From positions 758 through 64,757 of the forward strand of contig JAWLEP010000013.1 in the NCBI GenBank assembly GCA_041686025.1: a stretch of DNA of 64,000 nt, written 5' to 3'. Positions 8,956 through 46,928 of the stretch are shown piece after piece. Source of the stretch: Candidatus Fermentibacteraceae bacterium (GTDB taxonomy: Bacteria; Fermentibacterota; Fermentibacteria; Fermentibacterales; JCC-6). The stretch's first letter is position 1; the number at the start of each line of letters is the position of its first letter. Made by a program: the position numbers and the translations under genes. The notes under the pieces were generated by a model. That model did not search any database. It saw nothing but the letters and a program-made list of their open reading frames with translations, and was not told the DNA's origin.

Positions 8956-9645
8956 TTGATTCACGGCTTCTACATGGGTGATCCGGGATTCCTGCTGGTG
9001 ATAGGCGCCATCCTTCTGGGCCTGGCGGCCCAGGGAATGGTGAGCAGGACCTACGGCAAGTACTCCAGGGTCAGGGCCGCCTCGGGCCTTTCGGGTGCGG
9101 AGGTGGCCCGGCGGATACTGGACGTCAACGGCCTCTCCCACATTCAGGTGACCAGGACCGGGGGGAAGCTGTCCGACCACTACGACCCCCGGGACGGTAC
9201 TCTGTACCTTTCTGAAGGAGTATACAGCGGACGCTCCGTGTCGGCGGCGGGAGTGGCGGCCCACGAGGCCGGCCACGCGGTGCAGCACGCCATGGGATAC
9301 CGTCCCTTCAAGCTGCGGAGCGCGCTGGTTCCGGCGGCCAACCTGGGGAGCCAGGCCCTGTTCCCGCTGATAATAGGCGGCTTTCTCTTCCAGATGACCC
9401 AGCTGTTCTACATCGGCGCCGCCCTCTACGCCGCCGCGCTCCTCTTCCACCTGGTCACCCTGCCGGTGGAGATCGACGCCAGCCGCAGGGCGGTGACGCA
9501 GCTGCAGGCCACCGGGTCCGTGACCACCAGTGACATCTCCGGCGTGAGAAAGGTCCTGGGAGCGGCGGCCATGACCTACGTGGCGGCGGCCCTGGTAGCC
9601 ATAGCCAACATGGCCAGGCTCCTACTTCTGGGGAGGCGCAGCTAG
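8956..9645 (+). CDS. Zinc metallopeptidase, YugP-like family (membrane associated).
   Basis: Contains HEAGHAVQH (HExxH) and membrane helices, with the YugP-like layout (KYSRVRAASGLSGAEVARRILD...). Confidence 0.7.
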   Translation: MIHGFYMGDPGFLLVIGAILLGLAAQGMVSRTYGKYSRVRAASGLSGAEVARRILDVNGLSHIQVTRTGGKLSDHYDPRDGTLYLSEGVYSGRSVSAAGVAAHEAGHAVQHAMGYRPFKLRSALVPAANLGSQALFPLIIGGFLFQMTQLFYIGAALYAAALLFHLVTLPVEIDASRRAVTQLQATGSVTTSDISGVRKVLGAAAMTYVAAALVAIANMARLLLLGRRS

Positions 9646-28109: not shown

Positions 28110-31100
28110 GAGCTATGCTTGCAGCGACGGTGCTGGCGATGGCCGCGGTCTCCGCCGGGGCCATGGATGTTACAGTAAGCGTCCCCCTGGGCGCTCCCTC
28201 CACTCTGGAGGGGGAGATGGGCGTCTCCCCCTGGGCCCCGGGCCTGACCCTGGCCGGGGAGCCCGGCGAGGTCCTGCTTCCCGTGCGCCGGGTCTTCGTG
28301 CCGGTGCCCCCCGGCAGCAGCCCCTCAGTCGAGGTCCGTCCCCTGGACGTGGTGCGTACGCGGGTACCGGATGGAGGCTGGGCCAGGGCCCCCATGCTGG
28401 TGGGAAGCGGGCTGGAGACCACCGCCGTTCCGGCGCCCCCCCGCACGTCCTCCAGGGGCCGGGCTGAGCTGGTGGGGGTCAGCCATCTGTTGGGCGTGCC
28501 GGTGGCCGTGGTGGACGTATGCCCGCTCTCTTCGGGGTCCATGGCCTCCTGGGCGAGCCGGGTGGAGCTTACCGTATCCGTGCATGACCGGTTCCCCGCG
28601 CCACGCCAGCTCCCTCCGGCGACCCTGGACGGGGTGCTGGCGGGTGACGGTCCGGTATGGGGCGGCGCCAGCCTGCAATGGCCCGAGAGCCCCTTCTGGG
28701 GCCGGCCGTGGGCCAGGCTGGCCGTGGGTTCCACCGGCGGCTACAGGGTCACCGTCTCCGACCTGGAGGACGCCGGCTGCTCCGTCTCCGGGGCCCCGGT
28801 GGAGACCCTGCGGATGCTCACCGGGCCTGCGGTGATGTTCGGCACGGACCCCTCGGTCCTGCACACCCCCCAGGAGGTGGCCATCGAGGTGGAGGACCTG
28901 GACGGAAACGGGCTGTTCGACGGCTCCGACAACGTGCGCTTCCTGGCGAGGGGGATAGAGCGCTGGATTCCGGAGGCCGACAGCCTGCGCTGGATGCAGC
29001 ACCGCTACGCTACCCACAACGTCTACTGGCTGACGTGGGGGGGCGAGAGCGGGGAGAGGGTGTCCATCGAGGACGCCTCCCCGGACGGCTCGCCCGCCTA
29101 CGGGCTCCCGGTTCCCTCCTGGAGCTTCCGGGAGGAGGAGCTGCAGTACCAGGCGGACTACGAGACCAGAACCGGCTGGGTGTGGGAGGTGCTGGAGGAC
29201 GGGGAGACCTTCCAGGCCACCCTGGAGCTTCCCCGGGCGGGGAGCTGGGACCTGAAGGCGCGCGTCCTCTCGCTGGGCACCGGCACCAGCACCGTGCGGC
29301 TGTCGGTGAACGGCCAGCAGGTGGCCCAGGAGACCTGGACCAACAGGCAGGTCCGGTGGATAGTGGCCCCGGACCAGCCGCTGCAGCAGTCCAACCAGGT
29401 GGAGGTGACCTTCTCCATAGAGGGAGGGGTAGACCCCTACCTGGCGGTGGACCTGTTCAAGGTGCAGTCGGCGCTTCCGGGAGGGGCCACTGACAGGCCG
29501 CTCTTCCCGGGGCTGTCGGCCCAGGGCAGGTACACCTTCTCCATGGACCGGATTCCCCAGGGCGGCCGGGTCTACGACGTCACCGACTTCCTCGGCCCGG
29601 TGAGGCTGGACGGCGTCCAGCCGGCGGGGGAAGGTGTTTCCTTCTCCGCGACCGTGGGCGACAGCACCCGCCTGCTGGCCCTCGCGGAGGATGACTGGCG
29701 GCTTCCCGACTCCATTGGGCCGGCCTCTCCCGGGAGGATCCTGGGCACCCTGGAGGAGGGCGACCGTCTCTTCGTGGCTCCCCCCTCGCTCCTCGACGGC
29801 GTCTGGGGCCTTGCTCAGATCAGCGAGCAGGCCGGGCTCGTTCCGGCGGCTGTGACCACCAGGGAGGTCTACGACGAGTTCAACGCCGGGGTGGCCGACC
29901 CCGGGGCCATCCGCTCCGCCGTGCGCTGGGGCCAGGACGAGCTGTCTCCCGGCGTGGAGGGTCTGGTCCTGGTGGGCAACGGACACTGGGACGTGAGGAT
30001 GAACACCGTCTCCACTCCCAGCCTGGTCCCGCCCTACACCCTTCTGGGCAATCCCTCCTCCGGGGAGGGGGTATGCTCCGACGACTTCTACGTCATGACC
30101 CATTCCGGGGACGTTCTGCCGGAGATGCCGGTGGGCAGGATACCGGCCGAGGACGCCACCGATCTGGCCTCCATCACCGCCAAGAGCCTGGCGTACGCGG
30201 AGGGGGCCTCCGCGGGGGACTGGGTCAACAGAATGATGTTCCTGGCCGACGACGAGTGGGGCAACGGCATGAACCAGAGCGAGACGGTCCACACCATCGA
30301 CTGCGAGAAGCTGGCCGAGGACCACGCACCCCGCTACGTCGACCGGGAGAAGGTGTACCTGATCGAGTACCCGTGGCCCTCCGGGGGTGGTCACCCCGAG
30401 AAGGAGGAGGCCCGGGAGGACTTCATAATGGAGTACAGCCGGGGGAGCGCCTTCATGGCCTTCATCGGCCACGGCTCCCCCAACCAGATCACCAACGAGA
30501 AGGTCCTGCGGGGATCGGACGTACCCTCGCTTACCAACGGCGCCAGGCTGCCCCTCACCTACTGGGGCACCTGCAACGTGGGGCAGTTCGACATACCGGG
30601 GTCCACCTGCATAGGGGGCAGGCTGGTAGCCTCCCCGGAGGGCGGGGGCGTGGCATCGGTGGCCGCCACCAGGGGCACCTTCAGCGGCCCCAACTACTCC
30701 CTGGGGGCGGCCCTCATCGACTCCCTGTACGGCTCGGGCGCCGATTACTCCATGGGAACGGCCACCTGGCTGGCCAAGATAGGCAACGCCTCCTACACGG
30801 GATCGGTACGCTACTACGCCTACCTCGGGCACCCCGACCTGTGGCTGATGATGCCCGATACGGCTCCCCAGCTGTCCCTGGCGGCTCCCCAGCTGCTCAG
30901 CGGCCAGACCAACTCCCTCCAGGGCGACGGCTTCGCCGGGCAGGGGCTGGCGGCCATCGAGGTCCGCGAGTCCTCCGTGGACACCGTATACACCACACTC
31001 GGCGGCAACATCATAAACTGGCGCAAGCCGGGAGGCCCCGCCTACCGCGGCACCGTGGCCCTGGACGCCGGCGGCTTCGGCCTGGAGGCCTTCGTTCCCC

Positions 31101-31864
31101 TGCAGTCCAGGACCGGAGGCCTGGCCAGGGCCGCGGCCACCTATCTGGGCGCCCCCGTCACCTCCGCGGCGGCGCTGGACCCCCAGCCCCTGGCGGAGGG
31201 AGACCCGCCGGAGGACTACAGCGGGCCGGAGATACAGATGTGGGCCCGGGGATACCGGGGGGTGGAGGAACCCAGGGTCAGCGGCGAGGTCACCGTGGAG
31301 GCGGAGCTGTCCGACAGCAGCGGCATCTGCTTCCTGGGCGGTGACGGGCGGTCCATCACCCTGTTCCTGGACGGCCAGGGCATCGACGTCAGCCGGGAGT
31401 TCTCCTACCACCAGGGAAGCTCCACCTCGGGAAGCCTGGAGGCGGAGCTGGAGCAGCTCTCCGACGGATGGCACACCATCATCCTCCGCTGCTACGACGG
31501 CGTGGGAAACATGTCCATGGACACCCTGCGGCTGGAGTCCCTGCAGGGCGAGGACCTGGCCATACAGCAGGAGCTGGTCTATCCCAACCCGGGCAGCGGC
31601 AGGAGGTGCTTCAGCTTTCGGGTCACCGCAGACGCGTTCGTGCGCATATCCATCTATACGGTGGCCGGCAGGCGGATACGCACCCTTTCCTCCGACTGCT
31701 CTCAGGGTTACAATCAGATCGTATGGGACGGGCTGGACGCCGAGGGTGACAGGCCGGCCACCGGCAGCTACGTCTACCGCATCGAGGCGGTGGCCTCCGG
31801 GAGCAGCGTCTTCGACACGGAGGCCGAGGAGATGGGAGTTCTGGCCGTGGTGGAGGGTGGTTAG
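28106..31864 (+). CDS. Giant secreted peptidase C25 family protein with T9SS C-terminal sorting domain. Paralog 2.
   Basis: Start MRAMLAATVLAMAAVSAGA (internal to track ORF 27806..31864). Motifs FIGHGSPNQ and LTYWGTCNVGQFD. It is collinear with paralog 1 (shared blocks ...ESPFWGRPWAR..., ...NVYWLTWGG..., ...KVYLIEYPWP...). CTD is ELVYPNPGSGRRCFSFR...GSYVYRIE. Confidence 0.75.
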   Translation: MRAMLAATVLAMAAVSAGAMDVTVSVPLGAPSTLEGEMGVSPWAPGLTLAGEPGEVLLPVRRVFVPVPPGSSPSVEVRPLDVVRTRVPDGGWARAPMLVGSGLETTAVPAPPRTSSRGRAELVGVSHLLGVPVAVVDVCPLSSGSMASWASRVELTVSVHDRFPAPRQLPPATLDGVLAGDGPVWGGASLQWPESPFWGRPWARLAVGSTGGYRVTVSDLEDAGCSVSGAPVETLRMLTGPAVMFGTDPSVLHTPQEVAIEVEDLDGNGLFDGSDNVRFLARGIERWIPEADSLRWMQHRYATHNVYWLTWGGESGERVSIEDASPDGSPAYGLPVPSWSFREEELQYQADYETRTGWVWEVLEDGETFQATLELPRAGSWDLKARVLSLGTGTSTVRLSVNGQQVAQETWTNRQVRWIVAPDQPLQQSNQVEVTFSIEGGVDPYLAVDLFKVQSALPGGATDRPLFPGLSAQGRYTFSMDRIPQGGRVYDVTDFLGPVRLDGVQPAGEGVSFSATVGDSTRLLALAEDDWRLPDSIGPASPGRILGTLEEGDRLFVAPPSLLDGVWGLAQISEQAGLVPAAVTTREVYDEFNAGVADPGAIRSAVRWGQDELSPGVEGLVLVGNGHWDVRMNTVSTPSLVPPYTLLGNPSSGEGVCSDDFYVMTHSGDVLPEMPVGRIPAEDATDLASITAKSLAYAEGASAGDWVNRMMFLADDEWGNGMNQSETVHTIDCEKLAEDHAPRYVDREKVYLIEYPWPSGGGHPEKEEAREDFIMEYSRGSAFMAFIGHGSPNQITNEKVLRGSDVPSLTNGARLPLTYWGTCNVGQFDIPGSTCIGGRLVASPEGGGVASVAATRGTFSGPNYSLGAALIDSLYGSGADYSMGTATWLAKIGNASYTGSVRYYAYLGHPDLWLMMPDTAPQLSLAAPQLLSGQTNSLQGDGFAGQGLAAIEVRESSVDTVYTTLGGNIINWRKPGGPAYRGTVALDAGGFGLEAFVPLQSRTGGLARAAATYLGAPVTSAAALDPQPLAEGDPPEDYSGPEIQMWARGYRGVEEPRVSGEVTVEAELSDSSGICFLGGDGRSITLFLDGQGIDVSREFSYHQGSSTSGSLEAELEQLSDGWHTIILRCYDGVGNMSMDTLRLESLQGEDLAIQQELVYPNPGSGRRCFSFRVTADAFVRISIYTVAGRRIRTLSSDCSQGYNQIVWDGLDAEGDRPATGSYVYRIEAVASGSSVFDTEAEEMGVLAVVEGG

Positions 31865-33032: not shown

Positions 33033-33193
33033 GGGGACGGAGATTAAATCCACCAAAAGGAACCTGAAGGGACGGAGTTTAAGTTCATCAAGTACAGTGC
33101 GCCAAAAGCTTGGATTGTCGCAAGCCCTGAACTTGATGAACTTAATCTCCGTCCCCGGTTGACTTAATCTCCGTCCCCGGTTGACGTCCCCGG
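33033..33193. repeat. Cluster of four copies (both orientations) of the motif GGGGACGGAGATTAA / TTAATCTCCGTCCCC. It includes a 25-bp inverted repeat and a 22-bp tandem direct repeat.
   Basis: Copies at ~33033-33047 and 33069-33083 (forward), and 33141-33155 and 33163-33177 (reverse). IR arm 33069-33093 pairs with 33131-33155 (1 mismatch, 37-nt spacer). The unit cttaatctccgtccccggttga is tandemly duplicated at 33141-33162 and 33163-33184. It begins 6 nt after the TPR stop and ends ~145 nt upstream of ppdK. Confidence 0.7.
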
Positions 33194-33336
33194 GGCGTTT
33201 GTTGGCCGCGGCGGGGCAGTTGCATATATTCAATGCTCCCGAGGAGCCTCAGCCGTCCCCGCGGCCGGGGATCAGTCAACAAATCATGCGGTGCCATGGG
33301 GCGCCGGCATCCGTGCGGAGAGTGGTGGTTGAAGAG

Positions 33337-36108
<2,772 letters not shown>

Positions 36109-36119
36109 CGGGGAGACGC

Positions 36120-38537
36120 TTGAACGAGCAAGGGCGCACGGTAGTAGTAGCCGAGAGCGACCCCGATCTGCTGGGGATGATGGAGAAGGCCCTCTGCGAG
36201 GAGGGCCTTTCCGTCCACACCACCATGGACGGCTTCGGGGCGGCGCGAATGGTGTGCGAGAAGGCCCCCGCCCTGGCCATTCTCGGGTACTACCTTCCCA
36301 ATCTCTCGGGCCTGCGGGTCTGCCGCTTCCTCAAGAACCGCGACGAGACCGCGGGCATTCCCCTGGTGCTGATCTGCCCCACCGGTGACACCAGAATACA
36401 GCGCAGGGCCCGATGGGCCGGCGTGGACCGGGTGCTGGCCCTGCCCTTTGGCGTAGACGATCTCACCGGCCTCTGCGGAGGGCTGCTGACGGAATCCGAG
36501 CCCGCCGCCGAGCCGGTTCCCTGCTCCGATCCCGAGTCCATCCGGGACACCCTGTGCGACATGCTCGAGCACAGGGTGGAGCACCTGGAATCAGTGCGGG
36601 AGCTGGCGGGGCGTCTGGACCTCTCCACCTCCGCCCGGGAGGTTTTCATGCGCATCGCCGAGGGCGTGCTCACCGGCCTGGGCATGGACCGGGCGTGGAT
36701 AGCCCGATACCTGCCGGAGAGCGGCCAGCTGCTTACCGAGGCCACCGTGGGAAGGGGACTCTCGGACGAGGCCCGGCCGGTGAGCCTGGAGGAGAGGCCG
36801 GAGCTGCCGGAGGCCATAGCGGTGCGGGAGAAGAGGGTTGTCCGCTCCGCGGAGCTCCCCCTGCCGCCGCAGCGGCTGGCCTGGGGCGGCAGCACCGACT
36901 ACATCGACGTGCCCCTGATCGCCCGGGGACGCGTTCTGGGGCTGCTGCGCTGCGACCACCTGGTGAGCGGAAGGGGATTCACCAGGGAGGAGATCCAGGC
37001 GCTGAAGCAGTACGCGGACCAGGCGGCGCCCACGCTCTTCAACTCCCTGGGCGTGGAGGAGATGAGCGAGGGCCAGGAGCAGATGTCCTCCATTCTGGGC
37101 AGCATGGACTCGGCGGTGGTGGTGGTGGACACCAACAAGACCATCCTGGAGGCCACCTCCCGGGTGAAGGACCTCTTCGGAAAGCAGCCGGCGGAGATCA
37201 GGGGCAGGCCCCTGGGGGAGGTTGTGCCGGTTCTGGGGGATCCCGAGAGGGTCCGGCTGCTGCAGGAGGTTCTCGCGAACGGCTACTCGCGGACGGAGGG
37301 CGGCGTGGAGCTCTCCCGGGCGGGGAAGGGCAGCCTGGTGCTTCAGATACGATACGTGCCTCACCGGCGGAGCGGCAGGATCACCGGGGCGGTCATTGTC
37401 GCCGCCGACGTTACCGAGGAGTACCACCTCAGGGAGAGCCTCAAGCGGCGCAACGAGGAGCTGGAGACCATCTCCAGGATCGGCAGCAAGCTCAACTCCA
37501 CCCTGGACCTGGAGGAGATCTCCACCACCCTGGCCAGGACCATCAGGCAGTTCCACCCCGACGAGGCGGTTTCCATCCTCCTGCCGGCTCGGAGCGAGAA
37601 GGACTCGGAGGGCAGCTCCGAGTACTTCCGGGCTGCGGCCACCTCCGGCTTTCCCCGGGAGTACGACACCCTGGGCAGCAGGCTGCGGGTGTTCGGCTCG
37701 CCGTCGGACTCCGAGGAGGATGACGTATGGGAGCGTCAGAGCATAATCTCGGTGGCTGCCAGGACCGGCCAGCCGGTGAACGTGGACGACGTCACCCAGG
37801 ACAGCAGGTACCTGGAGGTGCTACCGTCCACCCGAAGCGAGATGGTGGTGCCCATGGTGGTAAGGGAGAAGGTGGTGGGCATCATAGACGTGCAGTGCTC
37901 CAGGCCCGGGCACTTCTCGTCGGACAACGTCCGCCGGATCACCACCCTGGCCAACCATGCGGCCACTGCGGTGGAGAACGCCCATCTGCACGCCAAGGTC
38001 TGGGAGATGGCCCAGCGTGACAGGCTCACCGGCCTGCGCAACCTGCGGTTCTTCGAGGACAGGCTGAAGGAGGAGCTGGACAGGGCCGCCAGGTACGATT
38101 CGCCCTTCTCCCTGATCATGATGGACATAGACGACTTCAAGCACTACAACGACTCCTTCGGCCACCCCATGGGCAACGTGCTCCTCAGGACCGTCTCCCG
38201 GGCCATCGGCTCCGCCCTTCGCGAGGTGGACATACTGGTCCGGTACGGAGGCGAGGAGTTCGTCTGCATCCTTCCCATGACGGGTCAGAGGGAGGCGGCG
38301 GAGATAGCCGAGCGCATCCGCCGCAAGGTGCTGGAGGCCAACTCCGAGATACCCCACGCCTCCGAGCAGCCCCGCGGATGCGTGAGCATCAGCCTGGGCG
38401 TATCCAGCTTCCTCACCGACGTCAGGGACCGCGACAGGCTGCTGGAGGTGGCTGACGAGAGGATGTACGCCGCCAAGCGGGCGGGGAAGAACCGGGTGTG
38501 CTCCCCGACCCCGGGCAGCAGCCCTTCGGATTCCTGA
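36120..38537 (+). CDS. Response-regulator receiver / PAS / GAF / GGDEF diguanylate cyclase.
   Basis: An N-terminal REC-like segment (VVVAESDPDLLGMMEKAL...LPNLSGL), PAS and GAF-like middle, and a C-terminal GGDEF domain (RYGGEEFVCILP, DDFKHYNDSFGHPMGN). It lies 12 nt downstream of ppdK. The start is TTG. Confidence 0.85.
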   Translation: MNEQGRTVVVAESDPDLLGMMEKALCEEGLSVHTTMDGFGAARMVCEKAPALAILGYYLPNLSGLRVCRFLKNRDETAGIPLVLICPTGDTRIQRRARWAGVDRVLALPFGVDDLTGLCGGLLTESEPAAEPVPCSDPESIRDTLCDMLEHRVEHLESVRELAGRLDLSTSAREVFMRIAEGVLTGLGMDRAWIARYLPESGQLLTEATVGRGLSDEARPVSLEERPELPEAIAVREKRVVRSAELPLPPQRLAWGGSTDYIDVPLIARGRVLGLLRCDHLVSGRGFTREEIQALKQYADQAAPTLFNSLGVEEMSEGQEQMSSILGSMDSAVVVVDTNKTILEATSRVKDLFGKQPAEIRGRPLGEVVPVLGDPERVRLLQEVLANGYSRTEGGVELSRAGKGSLVLQIRYVPHRRSGRITGAVIVAADVTEEYHLRESLKRRNEELETISRIGSKLNSTLDLEEISTTLARTIRQFHPDEAVSILLPARSEKDSEGSSEYFRAAATSGFPREYDTLGSRLRVFGSPSDSEEDDVWERQSIISVAARTGQPVNVDDVTQDSRYLEVLPSTRSEMVVPMVVREKVVGIIDVQCSRPGHFSSDNVRRITTLANHAATAVENAHLHAKVWEMAQRDRLTGLRNLRFFEDRLKEELDRAARYDSPFSLIMMDIDDFKHYNDSFGHPMGNVLLRTVSRAIGSALREVDILVRYGGEEFVCILPMTGQREAAEIAERIRRKVLEANSEIPHASEQPRGCVSISLGVSSFLTDVRDRDRLLEVADERMYAAKRAGKNRVCSPTPGSSPSDS

Positions 38538-38541
38538 TCCC

Positions 38542-39675
38542 GTGAAGATCATGGACATCACCATGTTCTACAGCGCCACCGGGGGCGGTGTGCGCCGCTA
38601 CCTGGAGACCAAGCGCCGCTGGCTGCGGCGGGAGCTCCCCTCGGTGGAGCACGTGCTGGTGATCCCCGGAGAGGAGCCGGGGATGACGGAGGACGGCCTG
38701 GGCCGGGTCTACTCCGTGGGGGGGATCCCGCTTCCCTTCTCCCCCGGCTACAGGCTTCCCGTGGGCGCGCGCAGAATCTCCAGGATACTGAGCGAGGAGT
38801 CGCCCGACCTGGTGGAGGCGGGCTCGCCCTTCACCATGCGCAGGGCCCTGTCCGGGGCCATCGGCTCCGGGGGACCGCCGGTGTTCGACTACTACCACGC
38901 CTACTTTCCACCCTCCTACGCCGCCGCCCTGGGGCGTCCCCTCACCTTTCTCAAGGCCCCCCTCCTCAGGTACGGATGGCACTGGCTCCGCCGCGCCTAT
39001 GCCGACTCCGCGCGGGTGCTGGTGGCCTCCCCCGTGATCCGTGAGGTGCTCCGCTCCCGCGGCATCGAGAACACCGAGCTGGCTCCTCTGGGAGTGGACG
39101 TGGAGAGGTTCCGGCTGACCCCCGGACCAGCCGGGGACGTCCCCGTGCTGCTCTTCGTGGGCAGGCTCACCGAGGAGAAGGGGATCAGCGTCCTGCTGGA
39201 GACCTACCGGCTGCTGAGGCAGCGGGGCAGGGTGCGGCTGCTCATCGCCGGCGACGGCATAATGCGGGAGAAGGTCGGGTCGCTGGCCGGGGACGACCCG
39301 GACGTCACCTACCTGGGCTACGTGCCCAACCGCAGAATGCCGGAGGTGTACGCCGAAGCCGACCTGCTGGTCTCCGCGGCGCCGACGGAGACGCTGGGGC
39401 TCTACTTCCTGGAGGCCCTGGCCAGCGGGGTGCCGGTGGTGGGCCTCTCCGGAAGCGGGCTGATGGACGTGCTGCCGGACCGGGTGGCCCGGGCGGTACC
39501 CCGCCAGCTCCCCCGGGATCTGGCGGAGGCCTGCCGGGAGCTGCTGGCCCGGCCGCCCTCCAGAGAGCTGTGCCGGAGGGCCGCGCTGGACTACGCCTGG
39601 CCCCGGAGCCTGCGCAGGATAGTCGGCCTCGAGACCTCCATAGCCGGCCTGGAGCTGCCGGGGCTGTCGGCATGA
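38542..39675 (+). CDS. Glycosyltransferase family 4 (GT-B, RfaG-like).
   Basis: VLLFVGRLTEEKGISVLLE...LLIAGDG...ADLLVSAAPTETLGLYFLEALASGVPVV, i.e. the GT4 EX7E-type motif region. Confidence 0.8.
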   Translation: MKIMDITMFYSATGGGVRRYLETKRRWLRRELPSVEHVLVIPGEEPGMTEDGLGRVYSVGGIPLPFSPGYRLPVGARRISRILSEESPDLVEAGSPFTMRRALSGAIGSGGPPVFDYYHAYFPPSYAAALGRPLTFLKAPLLRYGWHWLRRAYADSARVLVASPVIREVLRSRGIENTELAPLGVDVERFRLTPGPAGDVPVLLFVGRLTEEKGISVLLETYRLLRQRGRVRLLIAGDGIMREKVGSLAGDDPDVTYLGYVPNRRMPEVYAEADLLVSAAPTETLGLYFLEALASGVPVVGLSGSGLMDVLPDRVARAVPRQLPRDLAEACRELLARPPSRELCRRAALDYAWPRSLRRIVGLETSIAGLELPGLSA

Positions 39676-40772
39676 GCGCCGTGCAGCGGGTGGCGATACG
39701 GGAGGGTCTTACCTACGACAGGCACAGCCTCTCCGACGCTCTGCGGGACATGGTGGAGGCGGTGGGGGGCTGGCCCGACTCCATGGGGGCCGGCTCCAGG
39801 GTGCTTCTGAAGGTGAACATGCTGGCGGCCAAGCGTCCGGAGAGGGCCATAACCACCCATCCGCAGGTGGTGGCCGCGCTGGCCAGGCTGCTTCTGGACC
39901 GCGGCTGCAGCGTAGCGGTGGGCGACAGCCCCGGAGGCGCGGTGAAGGGCGTGCAGCGGTACTGGGACAGGTGCGGCTTCGCAGCTGTCGCCGAGGAGAT
40001 GGGCCTGGAGCTGGTGAACTTCGAGAGGTCCGGCTCCGAGGAGAGGCGCGTGGACGGTTTCACCTACCACATAGCCAGACCGGTGTTCGACTTCGATGCG
40101 GTTGTGAACATGTGCAAGCTGAAGACCCACATGTACTGCCGCATGACCTGCGCGGTGAAGAACGCCTTCGGCGTGGTGCCGGGGCTGGGAAAGGCCATGA
40201 TGCACGCCCATGCGGTCAGGCCCAGGGACCTGGCCAGGAGGATCGTGGAGATATACACCCAGGTCCGCTTCGACCTGGTGGTGATGGACGCCGTGCTGGC
40301 AATGGACGGCAAGGGCCCCAGCACCGACGGCCATCCCCGCAGCGACGGGGTGATGGCGGTGGCCACAGACAGCGTGGCCATGGATATGATCGCCTCGGAG
40401 ATGGTGGGGATGGAGACCGGCGAGTGGGGCACCACAAGGGCGGCCGTGGAAGCCGGAGTCGCCCCGGAACGGGCGGATATCGAGGTGGACGGCTGGCACG
40501 ACTTCCAGGACTTCCAGGTTCCCTCCAACCGGCTTTACAACATGGTTCCGCCGTTTCTGGGCAGTCTGGTCCGGCCCCTGCTGCGACGGGCGCCCGGAAG
40601 CAACCAGCGGTGCACGGGCTGCGGCTTCTGCGCCCGGAGCTGCCCGGTGGGGGCCATCACCATCAGAGACGGCAGGGCCAGGATGAGCAGCAGGAAGTGC
40701 ATCCTCTGCCTCTGCTGCCACGAGCTCTGCCCCGAGAACGCAGTGGAGGTAAAGACGCCGCTGGGCCGCTGA
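39672..40772 (+). CDS. DUF362 domain protein fused to C-terminal 4Fe-4S ferredoxin domain.
   Basis: DUF362 core (LLKVNMLAAKRPERAITTHPQVV...CKLKTHMYCRMTCAVKNAFGVVPG). The C-terminus has two CxxCxxCxxxCP motifs (CTGCGFCARSCP, CILCLCCHELCP). The ATGA overlaps the GT4 stop. Confidence 0.75.
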   Translation: MSAVQRVAIREGLTYDRHSLSDALRDMVEAVGGWPDSMGAGSRVLLKVNMLAAKRPERAITTHPQVVAALARLLLDRGCSVAVGDSPGGAVKGVQRYWDRCGFAAVAEEMGLELVNFERSGSEERRVDGFTYHIARPVFDFDAVVNMCKLKTHMYCRMTCAVKNAFGVVPGLGKAMMHAHAVRPRDLARRIVEIYTQVRFDLVVMDAVLAMDGKGPSTDGHPRSDGVMAVATDSVAMDMIASEMVGMETGEWGTTRAAVEAGVAPERADIEVDGWHDFQDFQVPSNRLYNMVPPFLGSLVRPLLRRAPGSNQRCTGCGFCARSCPVGAITIRDGRARMSSRKCILCLCCHELCPENAVEVKTPLGR

Positions 40773-40847
40773 GGACGCGTCCGGGAACCTTTCGCGGCGG
40801 GGCGTTTCTTTTTAGAATCCACAGTCTGCCCCGGAAACGGAGGATCG

Positions 40848-41774
40848 ATGGCCAGCAAGAGGTTCAGGCACCGCCTGGAGTACGCGCTGCTGCGGGCAAC
40901 GGTGTGGTTTCTCGGCCTGCTCCCCCTCAGGGCGGCGCTCCGGGCGGGGGCCGTTCTGGGCTGGACCGCCTGGCGGGTCCTGGGGATTCGCCGCCGCATA
41001 AGCATGATCAACCTCCGCCAGGCCTTTCCGGACCGCGACGACGAGGAGCTGGAGCGCATAGGCCTGGGGTCCTACATGAACGCCGGCCGGTTCATGGTGG
41101 AGTTCGCTCGGCAGAACAGGCTGGACGATGATCACATAGCCCGGCACGTGAAGCTGGACGGGGGCAGCCGGGAGATACTGCAGGAAGCCCTCTCGCTGGA
41201 GACCGGCCTCATAGGCCTGAGCTTCCACTTCGGCAACTGGGAGCTGCTGGGAGTGGCCCAGAGCCGCCTGGGCTTCGACGTCTCCTTCCTGGTGGGACAG
41301 CAGCGGAACAGGCTGGTGGACGACTTCATAAACCGGCTGCGCTCCTCCCACGGCCTGGAGATAATCACCCGGGACGCGGCCATGCGCCGAATAGTCAGAA
41401 TCGCCCGCAGCGGCGGCATAGTCTGCTGGCTCTCCGACCAGGATGCCGGCAGGGACGGCCTGGTGGTGGACTTCTTCGGCTACCCGGCCTCCACCCCCCG
41501 GGGCGCGGCGGCCTTCTCGGTGAAGCTGGGCATGCCCATTCTGGTGGGCTTCATGGTCCGCGAGGAGGGTCCGGACCACCGTCTGGTCTTTGGCGGACTG
41601 CTTCGCCCCAGGGAGGACCTGCCCCGGGAGGAGGCCGAGCTGGAGCTCACACAGCGTTACACGGAAGTGCTGGAGGAGATGGTCCGACGGCATCCGGAGC
41701 TCTACTGGTGGCCCCACCGGCGCTGGATGACAACCGGGCTTTACAGAGAGAAGAAGTCGGCGGATACTGAATAG
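40848..41774 (+). CDS. Lipid A biosynthesis (Kdo)2-lipid IVA acyltransferase-like / lysophospholipid acyltransferase (LpxL/HtrB family).
   Basis: N-terminal TM helix and an HX4D-type region (LSFHFGNWELLG). LpxL-family length (308 aa) and block order. Confidence 0.7.
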   Translation: MASKRFRHRLEYALLRATVWFLGLLPLRAALRAGAVLGWTAWRVLGIRRRISMINLRQAFPDRDDEELERIGLGSYMNAGRFMVEFARQNRLDDDHIARHVKLDGGSREILQEALSLETGLIGLSFHFGNWELLGVAQSRLGFDVSFLVGQQRNRLVDDFINRLRSSHGLEIITRDAAMRRIVRIARSGGIVCWLSDQDAGRDGLVVDFFGYPASTPRGAAAFSVKLGMPILVGFMVREEGPDHRLVFGGLLRPREDLPREEAELELTQRYTEVLEEMVRRHPELYWWPHRRWMTTGLYREKKSADTE

Positions 41775-41810
41775 ATGCGCCGTCGATGAGATGCGGGAAC
41801 GGGGTATTCC

Positions 41811-42938
41811 ATGAATAGCAGGGTAGCGGTTCTGAAGACCGGGCCCGACACGGTCCTGGAGGACTACTCCAGGCTGCTGCGGAGCATCGGCTACACGGAC
41901 TTTCTCGACGGGGGCGCCGACGTGCTCCTGAAGATCAACGTATCATGGCATCACTGGTATCCGGCCTGCTCCACCACACCCTGGCAGCTGGACGGCGTCA
42001 TAAGAACCCTCCTGGCGGACGGGTTCCGGCGCGACCAGCTGGTCTCAACGCACAACAGGACGGTGGTGGTCAGCGACAAGAAGGGGGAGAGGGGCAACCA
42101 CCTCAGGGGGGTGGACGAGGACCTGCACGGCATTCGCAAGGTGAGGCTGTACGAGCCCCCCGTGAAGTGGGAGGTCTACCGGCCGAAGAAGCCCTTCCGG
42201 GTCCTGGGGAAGATCTTCCCCGACGGGGTGAAGATCCCCGACTTCCTGGTGGGGAAGAACATAATCCACCTTCCCACCATGAAGACCCACGTCTTCACCA
42301 CCATCACCGGGGCCATGAAGAACGCCTTCGGCGGGCTGCTCAGCGAGCGCCGGCACTGGACCCACGCCGTGATCCACGAGACGCTGGTGGACCTGCTGCG
42401 GATACAGAAGGACATCCATCCCGGCATACTGGCGGTGATGGACGGCACCTTCGCCGGGGAAGGCCCGGGCCCCCGGGCCATGATCCCCCATGTGAAGAAC
42501 TACATACTGGCATCGGCCGACCAGGTGGCCATCGACGCCATCAGCGCCAGGATGCAGGGCTTCGATCCCATGAAGCTGGACTTCATCCGGCTGGCCCACG
42601 AGGAGGGCCTGGGAGTGGGCGACCCGCGGGACATAGAGGTGGTGGGGGAGGACATCTCGGACGTGGACTTCGGCTTCGTCCAGACCGACACCTTCGCCAG
42701 CCGCGGCCAGAAGCTTATCTACCACGGCTTCCTGAAGCCCCTGGAGGGGCTGCTCCTGCGCAGCCCGCTGGTGCCGTGGTCCTACCTGGCCAGCCGGGCC
42801 TACCACGACCTCTTCTGGATCAACGCCGTAGGCAGGAAGCGGATCAAGTGGGCCAGGTCCACGGAGTGGGGAAAGCTCTTCGAGCGGTACGGCTCCGTGG
42901 ACACCATGCCCCCCCTGGAGGGGGAGAATGGCGGCTGA
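41811..42938 (+). CDS. DUF362 domain protein (paralog without ferredoxin domain).
   Basis: Shares DUF362 blocks with 39672..40772 (LLKINVSWHH..., IIHLPTMKTHVFTTITGAMKNAFGG, LAVMDGTFAGEGPGP). Confidence 0.7.
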   Translation: MNSRVAVLKTGPDTVLEDYSRLLRSIGYTDFLDGGADVLLKINVSWHHWYPACSTTPWQLDGVIRTLLADGFRRDQLVSTHNRTVVVSDKKGERGNHLRGVDEDLHGIRKVRLYEPPVKWEVYRPKKPFRVLGKIFPDGVKIPDFLVGKNIIHLPTMKTHVFTTITGAMKNAFGGLLSERRHWTHAVIHETLVDLLRIQKDIHPGILAVMDGTFAGEGPGPRAMIPHVKNYILASADQVAIDAISARMQGFDPMKLDFIRLAHEEGLGVGDPRDIEVVGEDISDVDFGFVQTDTFASRGQKLIYHGFLKPLEGLLLRSPLVPWSYLASRAYHDLFWINAVGRKRIKWARSTEWGKLFERYGSVDTMPPLEGENGG

Positions 42939-43908
42939 GCGGCTCTCGGTTCTGGGCTGCGGCCGCTGGGGCGGGTTCCACCTCTGGTACGGCAGCCGGG
43001 TGGGGCTGGCCACCACCGGCTGGGAGCCGGAGGAATCGGCTCCCCTGGAGGAGCTGGCCAGGAACCGGCGCAACGAGTACCTGGAGCTGCCGAAGGACGT
43101 CCGGCTCACCTCGGACCTGGCCCGGGCCCTGGAGGCCGACCAGATCATCGTCTCCGTTCCTGCCCAGCACTTTCGCACGCTGGCGGCACGGCTGGCGGAG
43201 CACGACCTGCGGCGGGCCGACCTGGTGCTGTGCATGAAGGGCATAGAGCGCCGCACCGGCAGGAGGCTCAGCCAGGTGGCCTCCGAGGAGGGGGTTGGGG
43301 CGCGCAGCCTGTCGGCATGGGTGGGCCCCGGCCATCCCCAGCAGCTGGTCCGCGGCGTTCCCAGCTGCATGATAGTCGCCTCGGAGCTGGCGGAGAGCGC
43401 CGAGAGGATCGCCCGCCGCATGGGGAGCCCGCTCATACGGTTCTACCGCTCCACCGACCTTTCCGGCGTGGAGGTGGGAGCGGCGGCCAAGAACGTGGTG
43501 GGCATCGCCGCCGGCATCCTGGACGGCATGGGGTACTCCGGCCTCAAGGGTTCGCTGATGGCCCGGGCGCCCCAGGAGGTGGCCCGGCTGGTGGCGGCGA
43601 TGGGGGGCGACTGGCGGTCGGTCTACGGCCTCTCCCACCTGGGTGACTACGAGGCCACCCTGTTCTCCCCCTACAGCCGCAACCGGGCCTGCGGCGAGGC
43701 GCTGGCGAAGGGCAGGGAGGCGGCGGGCCTGGCCGAGGGCGTGGAGACCTCCGCCGCCATCTGCCGTCTCGCCGCCGAGTACGGCGTGGATATGCCCATA
43801 ACCAGGACGGTCCGCAGCATACTGGATGGCACGCTCACCCCGGCGGAGGCCATCGAGGAGCTGTTCGGCCGTCCGGAGAAAGAGGAGTTCCCTGATTCTT
43901 TCCGCTAG
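42928..43908 (+). CDS. gpsA: NAD(P)H-dependent glycerol-3-phosphate dehydrogenase.
   Basis: Rossmann N-terminus LSVLGCGRWG and GpsA motifs (VEVGAAAKNVVGIAAGILDGMG, ETSAAICRLAAEYGVDMPIT). 326 aa. It overlaps the previous stop. Confidence 0.85.
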   Translation: MAAERLSVLGCGRWGGFHLWYGSRVGLATTGWEPEESAPLEELARNRRNEYLELPKDVRLTSDLARALEADQIIVSVPAQHFRTLAARLAEHDLRRADLVLCMKGIERRTGRRLSQVASEEGVGARSLSAWVGPGHPQQLVRGVPSCMIVASELAESAERIARRMGSPLIRFYRSTDLSGVEVGAAAKNVVGIAAGILDGMGYSGLKGSLMARAPQEVARLVAAMGGDWRSVYGLSHLGDYEATLFSPYSRNRACGEALAKGREAAGLAEGVETSAAICRLAAEYGVDMPITRTVRSILDGTLTPAEAIEELFGRPEKEEFPDSFR

Positions 43909-43972
43909 CCGAAAAGGCGAGACCGAGATCCTGGCCGACCACCTGCACAGGGCCCCTCCCCTGCCGGGGGTG

Positions 43973-45007
43973 ATGGAGGCCCGGGACAGGGCGGAGAGGA
44001 CCCTGGGGGGGCATCCCCGCAGCTCCGCCTCGGACGGGATCGAGCTTCGCAGGCACCTGGACCGCTGCTCCGAAAAGGCGGCGGAGTTCTTCGGCGCCGC
44101 CTGCTGCGTCTTCTGCCCTCCCGGCACGGGAGCCGGCCTGGTAGTCGGGGAGCTGTGTCGCGGGCTCTCCGGGTCTTCCACCCGCCACGCAGTGCTGGCC
44201 GGGCTCTCCGACCTCACGCTTCTGGAGCCCATGCGCAGACTGCGCACGGCGGGAGGCGAGGTGGAGACCTGCCCGGTGGAGTCGGGGGGCAGGCTGGACC
44301 CGGAGCGCATGGCATCCATGCTGCGTCCCGGTGCTTCCCTGGCCTGCATGTCCTGGGCCTGCCGGACCACCGGCCTGCTCCAGCCGGCCGAAGAGCTGGC
44401 CGAGAGATGCGGGTCCATGGACGTCCCGCTGCTGGTGGAGGCCTCGGTGGTGGCGGGAAGGCTGCCGGTGGACATGGGGTCCATGGGCATTCCCGCGATG
44501 GTTGTGCGCAGCGACGCGCTGGGCGCTCCTCCCGGCCTGGACCTGGTGCTGCTGGACGAAGGGCTGGAGTCCCTCGACCCGGTGCCGGCGTTCTTCGAGC
44601 CGGGCCCGGGGGTTCCCGCCGGAGTGGAGGCCGCTGTGGAGGAGCTCTCCACCGGAGTGCAGCCCCGCGGCAGGATCGTCAGCGAGCTGAGGGATGCCCT
44701 GGTGGAATGGGTGACCACCAGAATCGATGGCTGCCGCTGTCCGGTGGACACGGCCCATCTCGTTCCGGGAGCCTTCATGATACTGGCCGGAGAGGGCGGG
44801 CCGGAGGGCCTGCACGCCAGGATGGAGGCCGCCGGACTGCGGGTGTCCGACCCTGACTCGGCGGAGCGTCTGGCCTTCATGCAGGACTCGGGGATGGACG
44901 ACATCGAACCCGACAGGCTCGTATGCGGCTGCCTCTCCCCGGGAAGCAGCATGGTGGACGTGGAGCTCTTCTGCAGGGGCCTGCGCGAGATCATGGAAGG
45001 GGGATGA
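43973..45007 (+). CDS. Aminotransferase class V-fold (NifS/cysteine-desulfurase-like) protein that apparently lacks the PLP-binding lysine.
   Basis: Block order resembles NifS, but the SGHK(I/L)YGPKG position reads VVRSDALGAPPG. The start is uncertain (ATG ~43973 is the first after the gpsA stop). Confidence 0.45.
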   Translation: MEARDRAERTLGGHPRSSASDGIELRRHLDRCSEKAAEFFGAACCVFCPPGTGAGLVVGELCRGLSGSSTRHAVLAGLSDLTLLEPMRRLRTAGGEVETCPVESGGRLDPERMASMLRPGASLACMSWACRTTGLLQPAEELAERCGSMDVPLLVEASVVAGRLPVDMGSMGIPAMVVRSDALGAPPGLDLVLLDEGLESLDPVPAFFEPGPGVPAGVEAAVEELSTGVQPRGRIVSELRDALVEWVTTRIDGCRCPVDTAHLVPGAFMILAGEGGPEGLHARMEAAGLRVSDPDSAERLAFMQDSGMDDIEPDRLVCGCLSPGSSMVDVELFCRGLREIMEGG

Positions 45008-46170
45008 TGCGCCGCTTTCTGCAGCTCGCCATGGCGCTTCTCATGGCCGCTCCCGCCCTGTCCGCCGGAAGGCGGTACCTTTGGGTGGTGAGAGACGGCC
45101 TCCGCAGCCCGGCGAGCATCGACTCCCTGCTGGAGAGGGCGTCCCTCTCCGGGGCCAACGGGCTGGTGGTGCAGGTGGTGGGAAGGGCCGAGGCCTACTA
45201 CGACTCCGACGTCCTGCCCCCGGCTGACTTCCGCGGCACCGACGATCCCCTGCGCTACCTTATCTCCCGGGCCCGTCCCCTGGGCATGGAGGTGCACGCC
45301 TGGGTGAACGCCTTCCTCGTCTGGTCCGCGCCCTGGTCGCCCGGGGACTCCTCCCACGTGGTCCTGGCCCACCCGGAGTGGATGATGGCCGACCGCCACG
45401 GCCGCTCCACGATGGACTACGGCCCCGAGGAGGCCGAGGCCGCGGGACTGGTGGGAGCCACCCTCTCCCCCGCCGAGCCCCGGGTCAGGGAGATGCTGGG
45501 GGCGGTGGCCGGCGAGCTGGCCTCCGGGTACGCCATAGACGGCATCCACCTGGACTACATCAGATACCCGGGCAGCTCCTTCGGATTCGAGGACCGGGCC
45601 CGGGCCCTGTTCACCTTCGCCGCAGGCGAGGACCCGGTGGGGGGAGGCTATCCCCGGGGGCCGATGTCGGACGACGCCGCGGCGGAGTGGTCGCGGTGGC
45701 GGGGGGCGATGGTCACCGAGGCGGTGGAGACCGTATCCGCCGCCGTCGGGAGGGCCGACCCCTTCCTGGAGCTCTCCGCGGCAGTGATCGCCGACCCCTG
45801 GGCGGCCGAGGGCTCCTTCAGCTGTCCCTGGAGGGACTGGCTGGAGGACGGTCTGCTGGACCTGGCCTTTCCCATGGCCTACGCCACCGACCCGGAGGCG
45901 GCGGAGCGGCTGGCCCGGCTGGACACCGCCATGGATCCGGAGAGGGTGGTATACGGAATAGCGTGCTACAACCAGCCGCTGGAACGGGCCTGGAACGCGG
46001 CGGAGCTGGCTCTGGAGAGGGACGCCGCCGGGGTGTGCGTATTCAGCCTGGGAGCCATGGACGACCGCGACGCCGCCCTCCTGTCGCGGCTCTGGAACGG
46101 GGGAAGTCAGACAGAAGCGCTCCCCCCCGCGGCGTTCCACAGAACCTGGAAGGGAATGCCGAGGCCGTGA
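45004..46170 (+). CDS. Glycoside hydrolase-like family 10 (GHL10/DUF4015-like TIM-barrel) secreted protein.
   Basis: Signal peptide MMRRFLQLAMALLMAAPALSA. Motifs GANGLVVQVVGRAEAYYDS, GMEVHAWVNAF and IDGIHLDYIRYP are typical of family-10-like uncharacterised glycosyl hydrolases. The ATGA overlaps the upstream stop. Confidence 0.6.
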   Translation: MMRRFLQLAMALLMAAPALSAGRRYLWVVRDGLRSPASIDSLLERASLSGANGLVVQVVGRAEAYYDSDVLPPADFRGTDDPLRYLISRARPLGMEVHAWVNAFLVWSAPWSPGDSSHVVLAHPEWMMADRHGRSTMDYGPEEAEAAGLVGATLSPAEPRVREMLGAVAGELASGYAIDGIHLDYIRYPGSSFGFEDRARALFTFAAGEDPVGGGYPRGPMSDDAAAEWSRWRGAMVTEAVETVSAAVGRADPFLELSAAVIADPWAAEGSFSCPWRDWLEDGLLDLAFPMAYATDPEAAERLARLDTAMDPERVVYGIACYNQPLERAWNAAELALERDAAGVCVFSLGAMDDRDAALLSRLWNGGSQTEALPPAAFHRTWKGMPRP

Positions 46171-46928
46171 GGGTGGCGGTGCTGGCCAGCGGGAGCAGGG
46201 GCAACGCCGTGGTGGTGGAGCACGACGGGCTGGTGCTCTACTTCGACTCCGGACTGAGCGGGAAGGAGCATGCCAGAAGGCTCCGCCAGAGCGGCCTGGA
46301 CTGTCCGCCTCCCAGCGCCGTGTTCCTCAGCCACGAGCACTCCGACCACCTCAAGGGGGTGGGAGTACTGGCCAGAAGGTACGGAGCCCCCGTCTACACC
46401 TCGCCGGGCACGGCCCGGGCGGCGGCTCCCAGGCTGGGGAAGCTGCCGGAGCTGGTGAGGATGCCCAACGGCGACACCGTTGACATGGGGCCCCTGCAGG
46501 TGTCCAGCTTCTCCGTTCCACATGACGCGGCCGATCCCAGTGGCTATGTAATCCAGTGGTGTGGAGGAAGGCTGGGCATCGCCACAGACCTGGGCATTGC
46601 CGGGCCCCTGGTGCGGGCACGGCTCTCGGACTGCACGGCACTCCTCCTGGAGTTCAACCACGACCTGGAGATGCTCTGGAACGGAAGCTACCCCTGGCCC
46701 CTGAAGCAGAGGATAGCCTCCTCCACGGGCCACCTCTCCAACGAGTCGGCGGCGGAGCTCCTGGGGTCCGTGGGCCATGGCGGCCTGGGGCTGGTGGTGC
46801 TGGCGCACCTCAGCGCGGAGAACAACAGGCCCGAGCTGGCGGTGTCGGCCGCCAGGGAGGTGCTGGAGGGGCCGGCGGTGTACGCGGGCCTGCAGGACAG
46901 AGCGCTTGTTGCTTTGGACATTGAATAG
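46167..46928 (+). CDS. MBL-fold metallo-hydrolase (YycJ/PhnP-like).
   Basis: HEHSDH (HxHxDH) motif. Likely GTG start ~46167 internal to track ORF 45378..46928. 254 aa. Confidence 0.75.
   Translation: MRVAVLASGSRGNAVVVEHDGLVLYFDSGLSGKEHARRLRQSGLDCPPPSAVFLSHEHSDHLKGVGVLARRYGAPVYTSPGTARAAAPRLGKLPELVRMPNGDTVDMGPLQVSSFSVPHDAADPSGYVIQWCGGRLGIATDLGIAGPLVRARLSDCTALLLEFNHDLEMLWNGSYPWPLKQRIASSTGHLSNESAAELLGSVGHGGLGLVVLAHLSAENNRPELAVSAAREVLEGPAVYAGLQDRALVALDIE

Follow-up and report, generated by a model that had tools for sequence, protein, structure and literature searches.

A 64,000-nucleotide (nt) stretch of a Candidatus Fermentibacteraceae genome (contig JAWLEP010000013.1, positions 758 to 64,757; hereafter the window, with a G+C content of ~68%) carries two genes for DUF362 proteins within a string of five forward-strand genes at positions 38542–43908. 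The genes encode, in order, a GT4 glycosyltransferase, a ferredoxin-fused DUF362 copy (DUF362-Fd), an LpxL-family acyltransferase, a second DUF362 copy (DUF362-B), and GpsA (Table 1). A preliminary description of this DNA had given the same order, which is confirmed by the open reading frame (ORF) listing, direct reading of positions 38480–44000, and strong Pfam and NCBIfam matches. Spacing is tight. The GT4 stop and the DUF362-Fd start overlap as ATGA, gaps of 75 nt and 36 nt separate DUF362-Fd from LpxL and LpxL from DUF362-B, and DUF362-B overlaps GpsA by 11 nt (ATGGCGGCTGA) rather than by the second ATGA described previously. No terminator-like sites were found across positions 36000–46500, and the five genes are a real and probably co-transcribed gene string. 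DUF362 had been called functionally uncharacterised and no functional study was found in the literature searched on DUF362, PF04015, and COG2006, but the family does have a partial placement, in that Pfam clan CL0471 holds both DUF362 and the N-terminal domain of LarA (Lar_N; PMC11770544).

Pfam assigns both proteins to DUF362, with scores of 172.4 bits for DUF362-Fd and 78.7 bits for DUF362-B against a gathering threshold of 24. The fusion of one copy to a redox module, also noted previously, is borne out by Fer4 matches and by two complete CxxCxxCxxxCP motifs in DUF362-Fd (C314/C317/C320/C324-P and C343/C346/C349/C353-P), in which all eight cysteines are invariant in 15 sequences; PDB sequence matches to this region are polyferredoxins and NuoI. 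Other invariant motifs of DUF362-Fd are K47-x-N49, T61-T62-H63-P64, D85-S86-P87-G88-G89, K151-T152-H153, K163-N164-x-F166-G167, H178, and D206, and its orthologues occur in Fermentibacteria, Krumholzibacteria, Eisenbacteria, Zixibacteria, and Ignavibacteria. DUF362-B has no Fe-S domain and ends in a conserved helical C-terminal extension of ~90 residues. A redox-dependent role is therefore reasonable for the ferredoxin-fused copy but unproven for DUF362-B. Identities of DUF362-B to Sumerlaeota, Hydrogenedentota, and Anaerolineae orthologues are 63–84%, those across phyla are 58–73%, and its matches at E ≤ 1e-30 amount to only 253 cluster representatives at 50% identity; its sequences form a separate, slowly evolving, and very conserved cross-phylum orthologue group. 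The two copies had been described as a duplication, and two copies are present, but their identity of 29% (BLASTP E 3e-12; hhalign 99.5%) marks them as ancient paralogues of different subfamilies rather than a local duplication.

Structure prediction gave confident AF2 models for both proteins (predicted local distance difference test, pLDDT, of 88 and predicted template modelling score, pTM, of 0.90 for DUF362-B; pLDDT of 85 for DUF362-Fd). In Foldseek searches against the PDB, all nine matches of the DUF362-B model at E ≤ 0.001 belong to the LarA family, and 18 of the 19 matches of the DUF362-Fd model at the same threshold are LarA-family chains, the other being 4NAR, an unannotated T. maritima structural-genomics protein. 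The LarA-family matches of both models have a probability of 1.0 and a TM of about 0.4, and comprise lactate racemase, malate racemase (LarA, Mar2), and other LarA-like nickel-pincer enzymes. According to these models, both DUF362 proteins have a LarA-like fold. Kinship extends to the sequence level, where genuine LarA proteins (P0245–P0247 and P0241) match PF04015 at 25.7–26.1 bits, above the gathering score, with LarA residues 82–245 aligned to profile positions 18–171, so that the DUF362 and LarA families of Pfam overlap in sequence. Sequence searches of the PDB with both DUF362 proteins and with a DUF362-B profile returned ferredoxin domains only, or nothing.

Both DUF362 subfamilies carry an invariant (K)TH...x9...K-N-x-F-G signature, and the H-x9-K spacing is common to His174/Lys184 of LarA (sequence of 5HUQ), H153/K163 of DUF362-Fd, and H160/K170 of DUF362-B. 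His108 and the base His174 are the catalytic residues in LarA, Lys184 is the covalent cofactor tether, and His200 is a Ni ligand. Candidates for His200 are H178 in DUF362-Fd and H182 in DUF362-B; no clear His108 equivalent was found in either protein. DUF362-B also has an invariant set of seven histidines and one cysteine (H81, H160, H182, H185, H189, H203, H263, and C53, along with D211 and E190), and these histidines and the cysteine could form a direct metal site.

Eighty genome loci were fetched around DUF362-Fd relatives, and their six-frame ORFs were searched with the window proteins. An LpxL-like gene lies ≤300 nt downstream of DUF362-Fd in 29 of 34 Fermentibacteria-type loci (two more have insertions) and in 23 of 38 loci of other phyla, with projected gaps of −10 to 99 nt overall and 9–99 nt in the other phyla. 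A GT4 gene is present upstream of DUF362-Fd in 7/38 Fermentibacteria-type loci and in 0/37 others. DUF362-B directly follows LpxL in 19 of 30 Fermentibacteria loci (it is displaced in two and absent in nine), and GpsA is downstream of LpxL or DUF362-B in 29 of these 30; neither arrangement occurs in other phyla. Only the succession of DUF362-Fd and an LpxL-like gene is conserved across phyla. The preliminary description had linked DUF362 to both LpxL and GpsA; the first link crosses phyla and the second is confined to Fermentibacteria. A hybrid histidine kinase gene or other DNA lies between DUF362-Fd and the LpxL-like gene in Fermentibacteria loci L007 (4626–7025, forward strand), L011, and L015, where the pair is separated and both genes are kept.

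In a neighbour-joining tree, DUF362-Fd sequences form three groups, and the LpxL-linked ones are a Fermentibacteria clade and a Krumholzibacteria/Eisenbacteria-type clade. Flanks of the pair differ between these clades, with pyruvate phosphate dikinase (PPDK) and GGDEF protein genes upstream in Fermentibacteria versus DprA upstream in the Krumholzibacteria-type clade. The string in the latter consists of DprA, DUF362-Fd, LpxL, a reverse-strand DUF3467 gene, a PfkB kinase (found in 12 loci), and a cytidylyltransferase-like protein (found in 10). PfkB kinase and cytidylyltransferase are the domain pair of HldE, and these genes look like split HldE genes (ADP-heptose, lipopolysaccharide (LPS) core). 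Because the DUF362-Fd/LpxL unit adjoins these putative heptose genes, its cross-phylum context would be LPS (lipid A/core) biosynthesis. The small DUF3467 gene, convergent with the LpxL-like gene and close downstream of it (L010, 10044–10367, and L051, 8107–8439, both on the reverse strand), was seen in 20 of the 80 DUF362-Fd loci, in the Krumholzibacteria-type clade.

The neighbours of DUF362-B were surveyed in 80 metagenome loci (62 clusters at 85% identity), with genes called by an amino-acid log-odds caller that misses some genes, so that neighbour counts are lower bounds. Six annotated contexts, which differ from one another, were also compared. In the clade of the window protein, lipid neighbours are LpxL and GpsA in Fermentibacteria, PSD and PssA (along with DeoC) in Sumerlaeota, and an MFS-PlsC acyltransferase in L091. 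Other neighbours are MazG in Hydrogenedentota, a 2-hydroxyacid dehydrogenase in Anaerolineae, and BshA in L092. The last of these, a GT4 protein beside DUF362-B, was considered as a glycolipid gene and dropped on being identified as BshA of bacillithiol synthesis; a DUF3467 gene (9275–9583) follows it, beside the DUF362-B orthologue. Anaerolineae-type orthologues (P0073, P0080, P0083, P0096, P0097, P0099, P0115, and P0118) end in a C-terminal hydrophobic segment followed by basic residues (columns 401–458 of alignment A2), which resembles a tail anchor and suggests membrane attachment in these monoderm Chloroflexi.

The commonest partner of DUF362-B outside the setting seen in the window is a UbiA-family polyprenyl-phosphate phosphoribosyltransferase. 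UbiA-family genes occur in 13/80 DUF362-B loci (directly adjacent in 12) versus 0/80 DUF362-Fd control loci (Fisher p = 1.4e-4), and all five UbiA neighbours scanned with NCBIfam are decaprenyl-phosphate phosphoribosyltransferases (255–315 bits, cutoff 234). The adjacent phosphoribosyltransferases have 300–321 amino acids. A role for DUF362-B as a glycerol-phosphate racemase (glycerol-3-phosphate to glycerol-1-phosphate) was considered and dropped because the adjacent UbiA proteins are of phosphoribosyltransferase type and not of DGGGP-synthase type. Flippase-like LPG_synthase_TM proteins are encoded in 7/80 DUF362-B loci versus 0/80 controls (p = 0.014), and UbiA loci also carry GT-C-like (weakly AftB/PMT_2/Alg9-like), ArnE/F-like SMR, GT2, and Wzy_C genes. 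Three-component pentofuranose systems consist of a phosphoribosyltransferase, a flippase, and a GT-C protein, with an obligatory 5-phosphatase and optional epimerases (PMC11127046), and the phosphoribosyltransferase-linked DUF362-B loci have this architecture. DUF362-B is the conserved extra gene of the four best-resolved loci (L101, L105, L117, and L123), and no DprE1/DprE2, SDR epimerase, or phosphatase was found among the genes scanned there. Two individual loci have further neighbours of note. An IscA/HesB-type Fe-S assembly gene lies directly downstream of the DUF362-B orthologue in L141 (6142–6504, forward strand), before a flippase-like gene and with a split transketolase upstream, an arrangement that might reflect a need for a metal or an Fe-S cluster. 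In L117, a low-GC metagenome contig, two separate genes for B12-binding proteins, one of them a radical SAM protein, come after those for the phosphoribosyltransferase, DUF362-B, and GT-C (4095–5879, forward strand).

The acyltransferase matches PF03279 almost from end to end (164.7 bits, profile positions 6–294 of 295) and has an HX4E motif (HFGNWE, residues 127–132) and a hydrophobic N-terminus (an anchor). Its best NCBIfam match is lipid A lauroyl acyltransferase (NF006270, 124.4 bits, cutoff 248), and it scores 87.4 bits (E 8.5e-25) against a cutoff of 209 on the phosphatidylinositol mannoside (PIM) acyltransferase (PatA) model; neither cutoff is reached. The curated model closest to the GT4 protein is GlcNAc-phosphatidylglycerol synthase (NF053787, 194 bits, E 3.2e-57), for which the cutoff of 480 is likewise not reached; its sequence supports assignment as a generic GT4 protein only, and the gene is an accessory insertion or member of the cluster. 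GpsA matches PF01210 (1.2e-18) and PF07479 (1.7e-34), reaches the cutoff of NF000940 (206.7 versus 202 bits), and is an ordinary glycerol-3-phosphate supplier.

Table 1. Features of the five-gene string and of its surroundings in the window (positions are those of the window).
Feature	Position	Strand	Evidence or remark
Peptidase_C25 (gingipain-like) protein, shorter	10290–11810	+	Upstream of PPDK
Methylmalonyl-CoA mutase large subunit	16265–17926	−	
Peptidase_C25 (gingipain-like) protein	23539–27363	+	1274 amino acids; upstream of PPDK
Peptidase_C25 (gingipain-like) protein	27806–31864	+	1352 amino acids; upstream of PPDK
Pyruvate phosphate dikinase (PPDK)	33181–36108	+	Upstream flank; PPDK domains seen in syntenic loci L008 and L009
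Response-regulator-PAS-GAF-GGDEF protein	36120–38537	+	Upstream flank; Pfam domains
GT4 glycosyltransferase	38542–39675	+	Glyco_trans_1_4 1.3e-25; Glyco_transf_4 2.5e-17
DUF362-Fd (DUF362 + C-terminal 2x[4Fe-4S])	39672–40772	+	PF04015 1.6e-50; Fer4 domains
DUF362 domain of DUF362-Fd, residues 44–242	39801–40397	+	PF04015
2x[4Fe-4S] ferredoxin domain of DUF362-Fd, residues 311–361	40602–40754	+	Fer4 families; two CxxCxxCxxxCP motifs
LpxL/HtrB-family acyltransferase	40848–41774	+	PF03279 3.5e-48
DUF362-B	41811–42938	+	PF04015 8.2e-22, residues 38–246
GpsA, NAD(P)H-dependent glycerol-3-phosphate dehydrogenase	42928–43908	+	Both glycerol-3-phosphate dehydrogenase domains; NF000940
Class-V aminotransferase/cysteine-desulfurase-like ORF	43826–45007	+	Weak partial match, residues 65–248, E 5e-10
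GHL10 protein	44923–46170	+	Downstream flank
Metallo-beta-lactamase-fold protein	about 46140–46928	+	Downstream flank
OmpA-family protein with CarboxypepD_reg domains	57374–59332	−	

Both DUF362 proteins have their nearest homologues in Candidatus Fermentibacteria/Aegiribacteria (formerly Hyd24-12), a phylum reported to be diderm with LPS (PMC5030696). Synteny shows that the PPDK-GGDEF flank upstream of the string (33181–38537) and the downstream flank (43826–46928) are kept only in Fermentibacteria. The listed start of the aminotransferase-like ORF overlaps GpsA by 83 nt, and its true start is probably near 43970–43973. Further upstream, one of the Peptidase_C25 proteins also has an FlgD Ig-like domain, and the order Peptidase_C25, TPR, PPDK recurs in other Fermentibacteria (L008 and L009). 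Elsewhere in the window are genes for the large subunit of methylmalonyl-CoA mutase and for an OmpA-family protein that carries CarboxypepD_reg domains; the latter is consistent with a diderm, propionate-type fermenter.

Our favoured reading, which we hold tentatively and at somewhat less than an even chance, is that the region consists of juxtaposed modules, and not of one pathway, in which LarA-fold enzymes act on envelope glycolipid or LPS precursors. The first module would be DUF362-Fd with the LpxL-family acyltransferase, an old two-gene unit in LPS (lipid A/core) biosynthesis. DUF362-Fd would most likely be a ferredoxin-coupled oxidoreductase whose redox step is linked to the acylation of LPS/lipid A in anaerobic diderms: the target of its LarA-like active site would be a carbon with a hydroxyl or keto group, either in the acyl donor or in the LPS precursor used by the acyltransferase, and the 2x[4Fe-4S] domain would turn the reaction into net electron transfer and not racemisation. 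The second module would be DUF362-B, whose substrate may be a lipid-linked sugar or polyol phosphate that it modifies at the polar head, most likely by LarA-style epimerisation via a keto intermediate, or alternatively by removal of a 5-phosphate. One large DUF362-B clade occupies the auxiliary slot of three-component pentofuranose systems, and members of the clade to which the window protein belongs lie by phospholipid or glycolipid enzymes. What the data show is the gene content, the synteny statistics, the predicted fold, and the sequence kinship with LarA; substrates, cofactor, and chemistry are inferred.

Several observations weigh against this proposal. Neither DUF362 protein matches Lar_N (PF09861) or LarA_C (PF21113), and this holds up to E ≤ 10; the two models give true LarA proteins 246–253 bits and 234–238 bits, respectively. 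The pairing of H153/K163 (and the following PG) with LarA His174/Lys184 comes from one weak hhalign alignment (E 0.15), which was not reproduced with a LarA profile or a home-made hidden Markov model (HMM). Comparisons by hhalign with LarA alone or with the LarA profile were not significant and gave inconsistent alignments, the LarA homologues available for the profile were too alike (77–99% identity) to be useful, and with the home-made DUF362 HMM the matches in LarA were limited to short collinear stretches. No larB, larC, or larE homologue (E ≤ 1e-3) was found in the window and 172 other loci (1.68 Mb in total). The LpxL-like protein falls under every equivalog cutoff. The third DUF362-Fd group (Zixibacteria/Ignavibacteria-type) has no LpxL pairing, with DUF362-Fd lying among YbeY, CorC, Obg, DprA, GltX, and a sigma-54 activator, and conservation of the longer string within the Krumholzibacteria-type clade weakens a specific coupling of DUF362-Fd to LpxL. 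Outside Fermentibacteria, DUF362-B neighbours are very diverse and mostly not lipid-related (129 Pfam families among 109 neighbours), and include acyl-CoA dehydrogenase, transketolase, MazG, 2-hydroxyacid dehydrogenase, and BshA. The phosphoribosyltransferase-linked loci lie in a different DUF362-B tree clade from the window protein, and no phosphoribosyltransferase, nor the flippase or GT-C protein of a three-component system, was found either in the window or in the Fermentibacteria loci examined.

The main rival explanation is plain synteny with soluble substrates, which is not very likely but draws support from the housekeeping and central-metabolism genes beside DUF362 in several lineages. 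Packed housekeeping genes and an inherited FCB-type gene order would explain the neighbourhood, and the DUF362 proteins would belong to soluble metabolism as 2-hydroxy-acid or sugar-phosphate racemases or oxidoreductases. Because the pairing is absent from the Zixibacteria/Ignavibacteria-type clade, the DUF362-Fd/LpxL adjacency could be inherited synteny; DUF362-Fd lies amid housekeeping genes in many lineages, and the string itself begins at PPDK, which, like the GGDEF protein, has no lipid link. DUF362-B occurs elsewhere near DeoC, MazG, acyl-CoA dehydrogenase, phosphoglycerate/2-hydroxyacid dehydrogenase, and split transketolase. Every characterised LarA-superfamily enzyme that PMC11770544 describes uses soluble 2-hydroxy acids, and no transmembrane segment is predicted in either DUF362 protein of this genome. 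However, the short-gap pair persists across clades that are 40–45% identical and have different flanks, phosphoribosyltransferase and flippase-like genes are significantly enriched beside DUF362-B when compared with a larger control set, and Anaerolineae orthologues of DUF362-B have a membrane tail.

A second rival concerns DUF362-B alone and is rather improbable: it could be a metal-dependent phosphatase acting on lipid-linked polyol or sugar phosphates, such as polyprenyl-P-ribose-5-P, or phosphatidylglycerol phosphate in phospholipid contexts such as that of the window. A 5-phosphatase is obligatory in three-component systems whereas an epimerase is optional (PMC11127046). The adjacent phosphoribosyltransferases, being so short, have no fused phosphatase domain, and no phosphatase family was detected among the scanned genes of the four best-resolved loci. 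The invariant His, Asp, Glu, and Cys residues of DUF362-B exceed the needs of LarA and are typical of a metal site, and phospholipid head-group enzymes adjoin DUF362-B in Sumerlaeota and Fermentibacteria. There is a precedent for both reactions within one family, PAP2, which includes Rv3807c, the DPPR phosphatase of mycobacteria, as well as PgpB of E. coli. Against a phosphatase, the sole structural relatives of DUF362-B are hydride-transfer racemases, no phosphatase family in Pfam or NCBIfam matches it, and its ferredoxin-fused paralogue points to redox chemistry in the family.

Least likely is the model of the preliminary description, in which the five genes form one pathway; we spell it out as the synthesis of a novel acylated glycolipid in the manner of PimA/PatA (a phospholipid would be glycosylated by GT4 and then acylated on the sugar by the LpxL-like protein, and the DUF362 proteins would provide redox tailoring). 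It has in its favour the tight spacing, the ATGA overlap of GT4 and DUF362-Fd, and the matches of GT4 and the acyltransferase to a phospholipid glycosyltransferase and to the PIM acyltransferase, but it is largely contradicted by synteny, in that 31/38 Fermentibacteria loci and all other phyla have no GT4, 9/30 loci have no DUF362-B, and GpsA is linked within Fermentibacteria only; the equivalog scores of GT4 and the LpxL-like protein are far under their cutoffs and the sister-clade pair adjoins putative LPS heptose genes. What survives of this model is the kept DUF362-Fd/LpxL unit and the location of DUF362-B near lipid-linked-sugar genes. The expected enrichment of DUF362 near lipid genes was seen, as LpxL adjacency and as phosphoribosyltransferase and flippase-like enrichment, and the string is disrupted in part in close relatives, with GT4 and DUF362-B often missing but DUF362-Fd/LpxL and GpsA mostly kept.

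DUF362 is a large family: detectable similarity to one of the two DUF362 proteins of the window extends to 4,677 cluster representatives at 50% identity. Links of DUF362 to LpxL and to phosphoribosyltransferase were not found in the literature searched. If these links are functional, the LarA fold would reach beyond soluble 2-hydroxy-acid racemases into envelope glycolipid chemistry, DUF362-B could supply the unassigned auxiliary step, as epimerase or 5-phosphatase, of the three-component pentofuranose systems, which are widespread and add variety to the surface glycans of bacteria, and DUF362-Fd would represent oxygen-independent, ferredoxin-coupled LPS tailoring in anaerobic diderm phyla. 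Should the links reflect position alone, the cluster would be no more than an ordinary run of housekeeping genes. A bolder and improbable extension is that DUF362 constitutes a cofactor-divergent branch of the LarA fold devoted to membrane-anchored substrates, in which DUF362-B is a single-protein replacement for DprE1/DprE2 (or for an Rv3807c-type phosphatase) that Fermentibacteria have redeployed on the head groups of phospholipids or LPS, and DUF362-Fd is a ferredoxin-driven, oxygen-independent reductase that tailors the substrate of the lipid A late acyltransferase in anaerobic diderms. With DUF362-Fd linked to an LPS acyltransferase and DUF362-B to lipid-linked sugar pathways, the functions of both proteins are now testable.

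The LarA fold, late acylation of LPS, and three-component pentofuranose systems are already known kinds. NF052623 ('Npun_F2552 family protein') is the NCBIfam model that best matches DUF362-Fd (152.8 bits over residues 7–290), yet the score is far under the cutoff of 500 and the model has no described function; no paper on this family was found in the literature searched. The DUF362 proteins resemble LarA in clan membership, in that LarA is the only annotated family of solved structures matched by both models, in the passing of the PF04015 threshold by LarA itself, and in the H-x9-K signature. They differ from it in lacking Lar_N and LarA_C matches, in having the C-terminal domain of LarA replaced by 2x[4Fe-4S] in DUF362-Fd and by the helical extension in DUF362-B, in having no larBCE near their loci, and in a context of envelope lipids and glycans, not of 2-hydroxy-acid metabolism. 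The acyltransferase is like LpxL/HtrB and PatA (PF03279) in its full-length match, HX4E motif, and N-terminal hydrophobic anchor; its host is diderm and LPS-bearing, and the sister-clade gene adjoins putative heptose genes. It is unlike them in falling below the equivalog cutoffs and in having a conserved DUF362-ferredoxin partner. We know of no LpxL or PatA with such a partner, and none was found in the literature searched. DUF362-B orthologues fill the same genomic slot as the auxiliaries of three-component pentofuranose systems, namely DprE1/DprE2, the C. youngae ORF13 SDR epimerase, Rv3807c, and HAD-type phosphatases (PMC11127046), directly adjoining the phosphoribosyltransferase alongside GT-C and SMR-like genes. 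DUF362-B is unrelated in fold and sequence to FAD-dependent DprE1, to the SDR proteins DprE2 and ORF13, and to PAP2 and HAD phosphatases, and the window has no phosphoribosyltransferase. LarA-type chemistry, with transient oxidation of a secondary alcohol and its re-reduction, would by analogy give the same net epimerisation as DprE1/DprE2.

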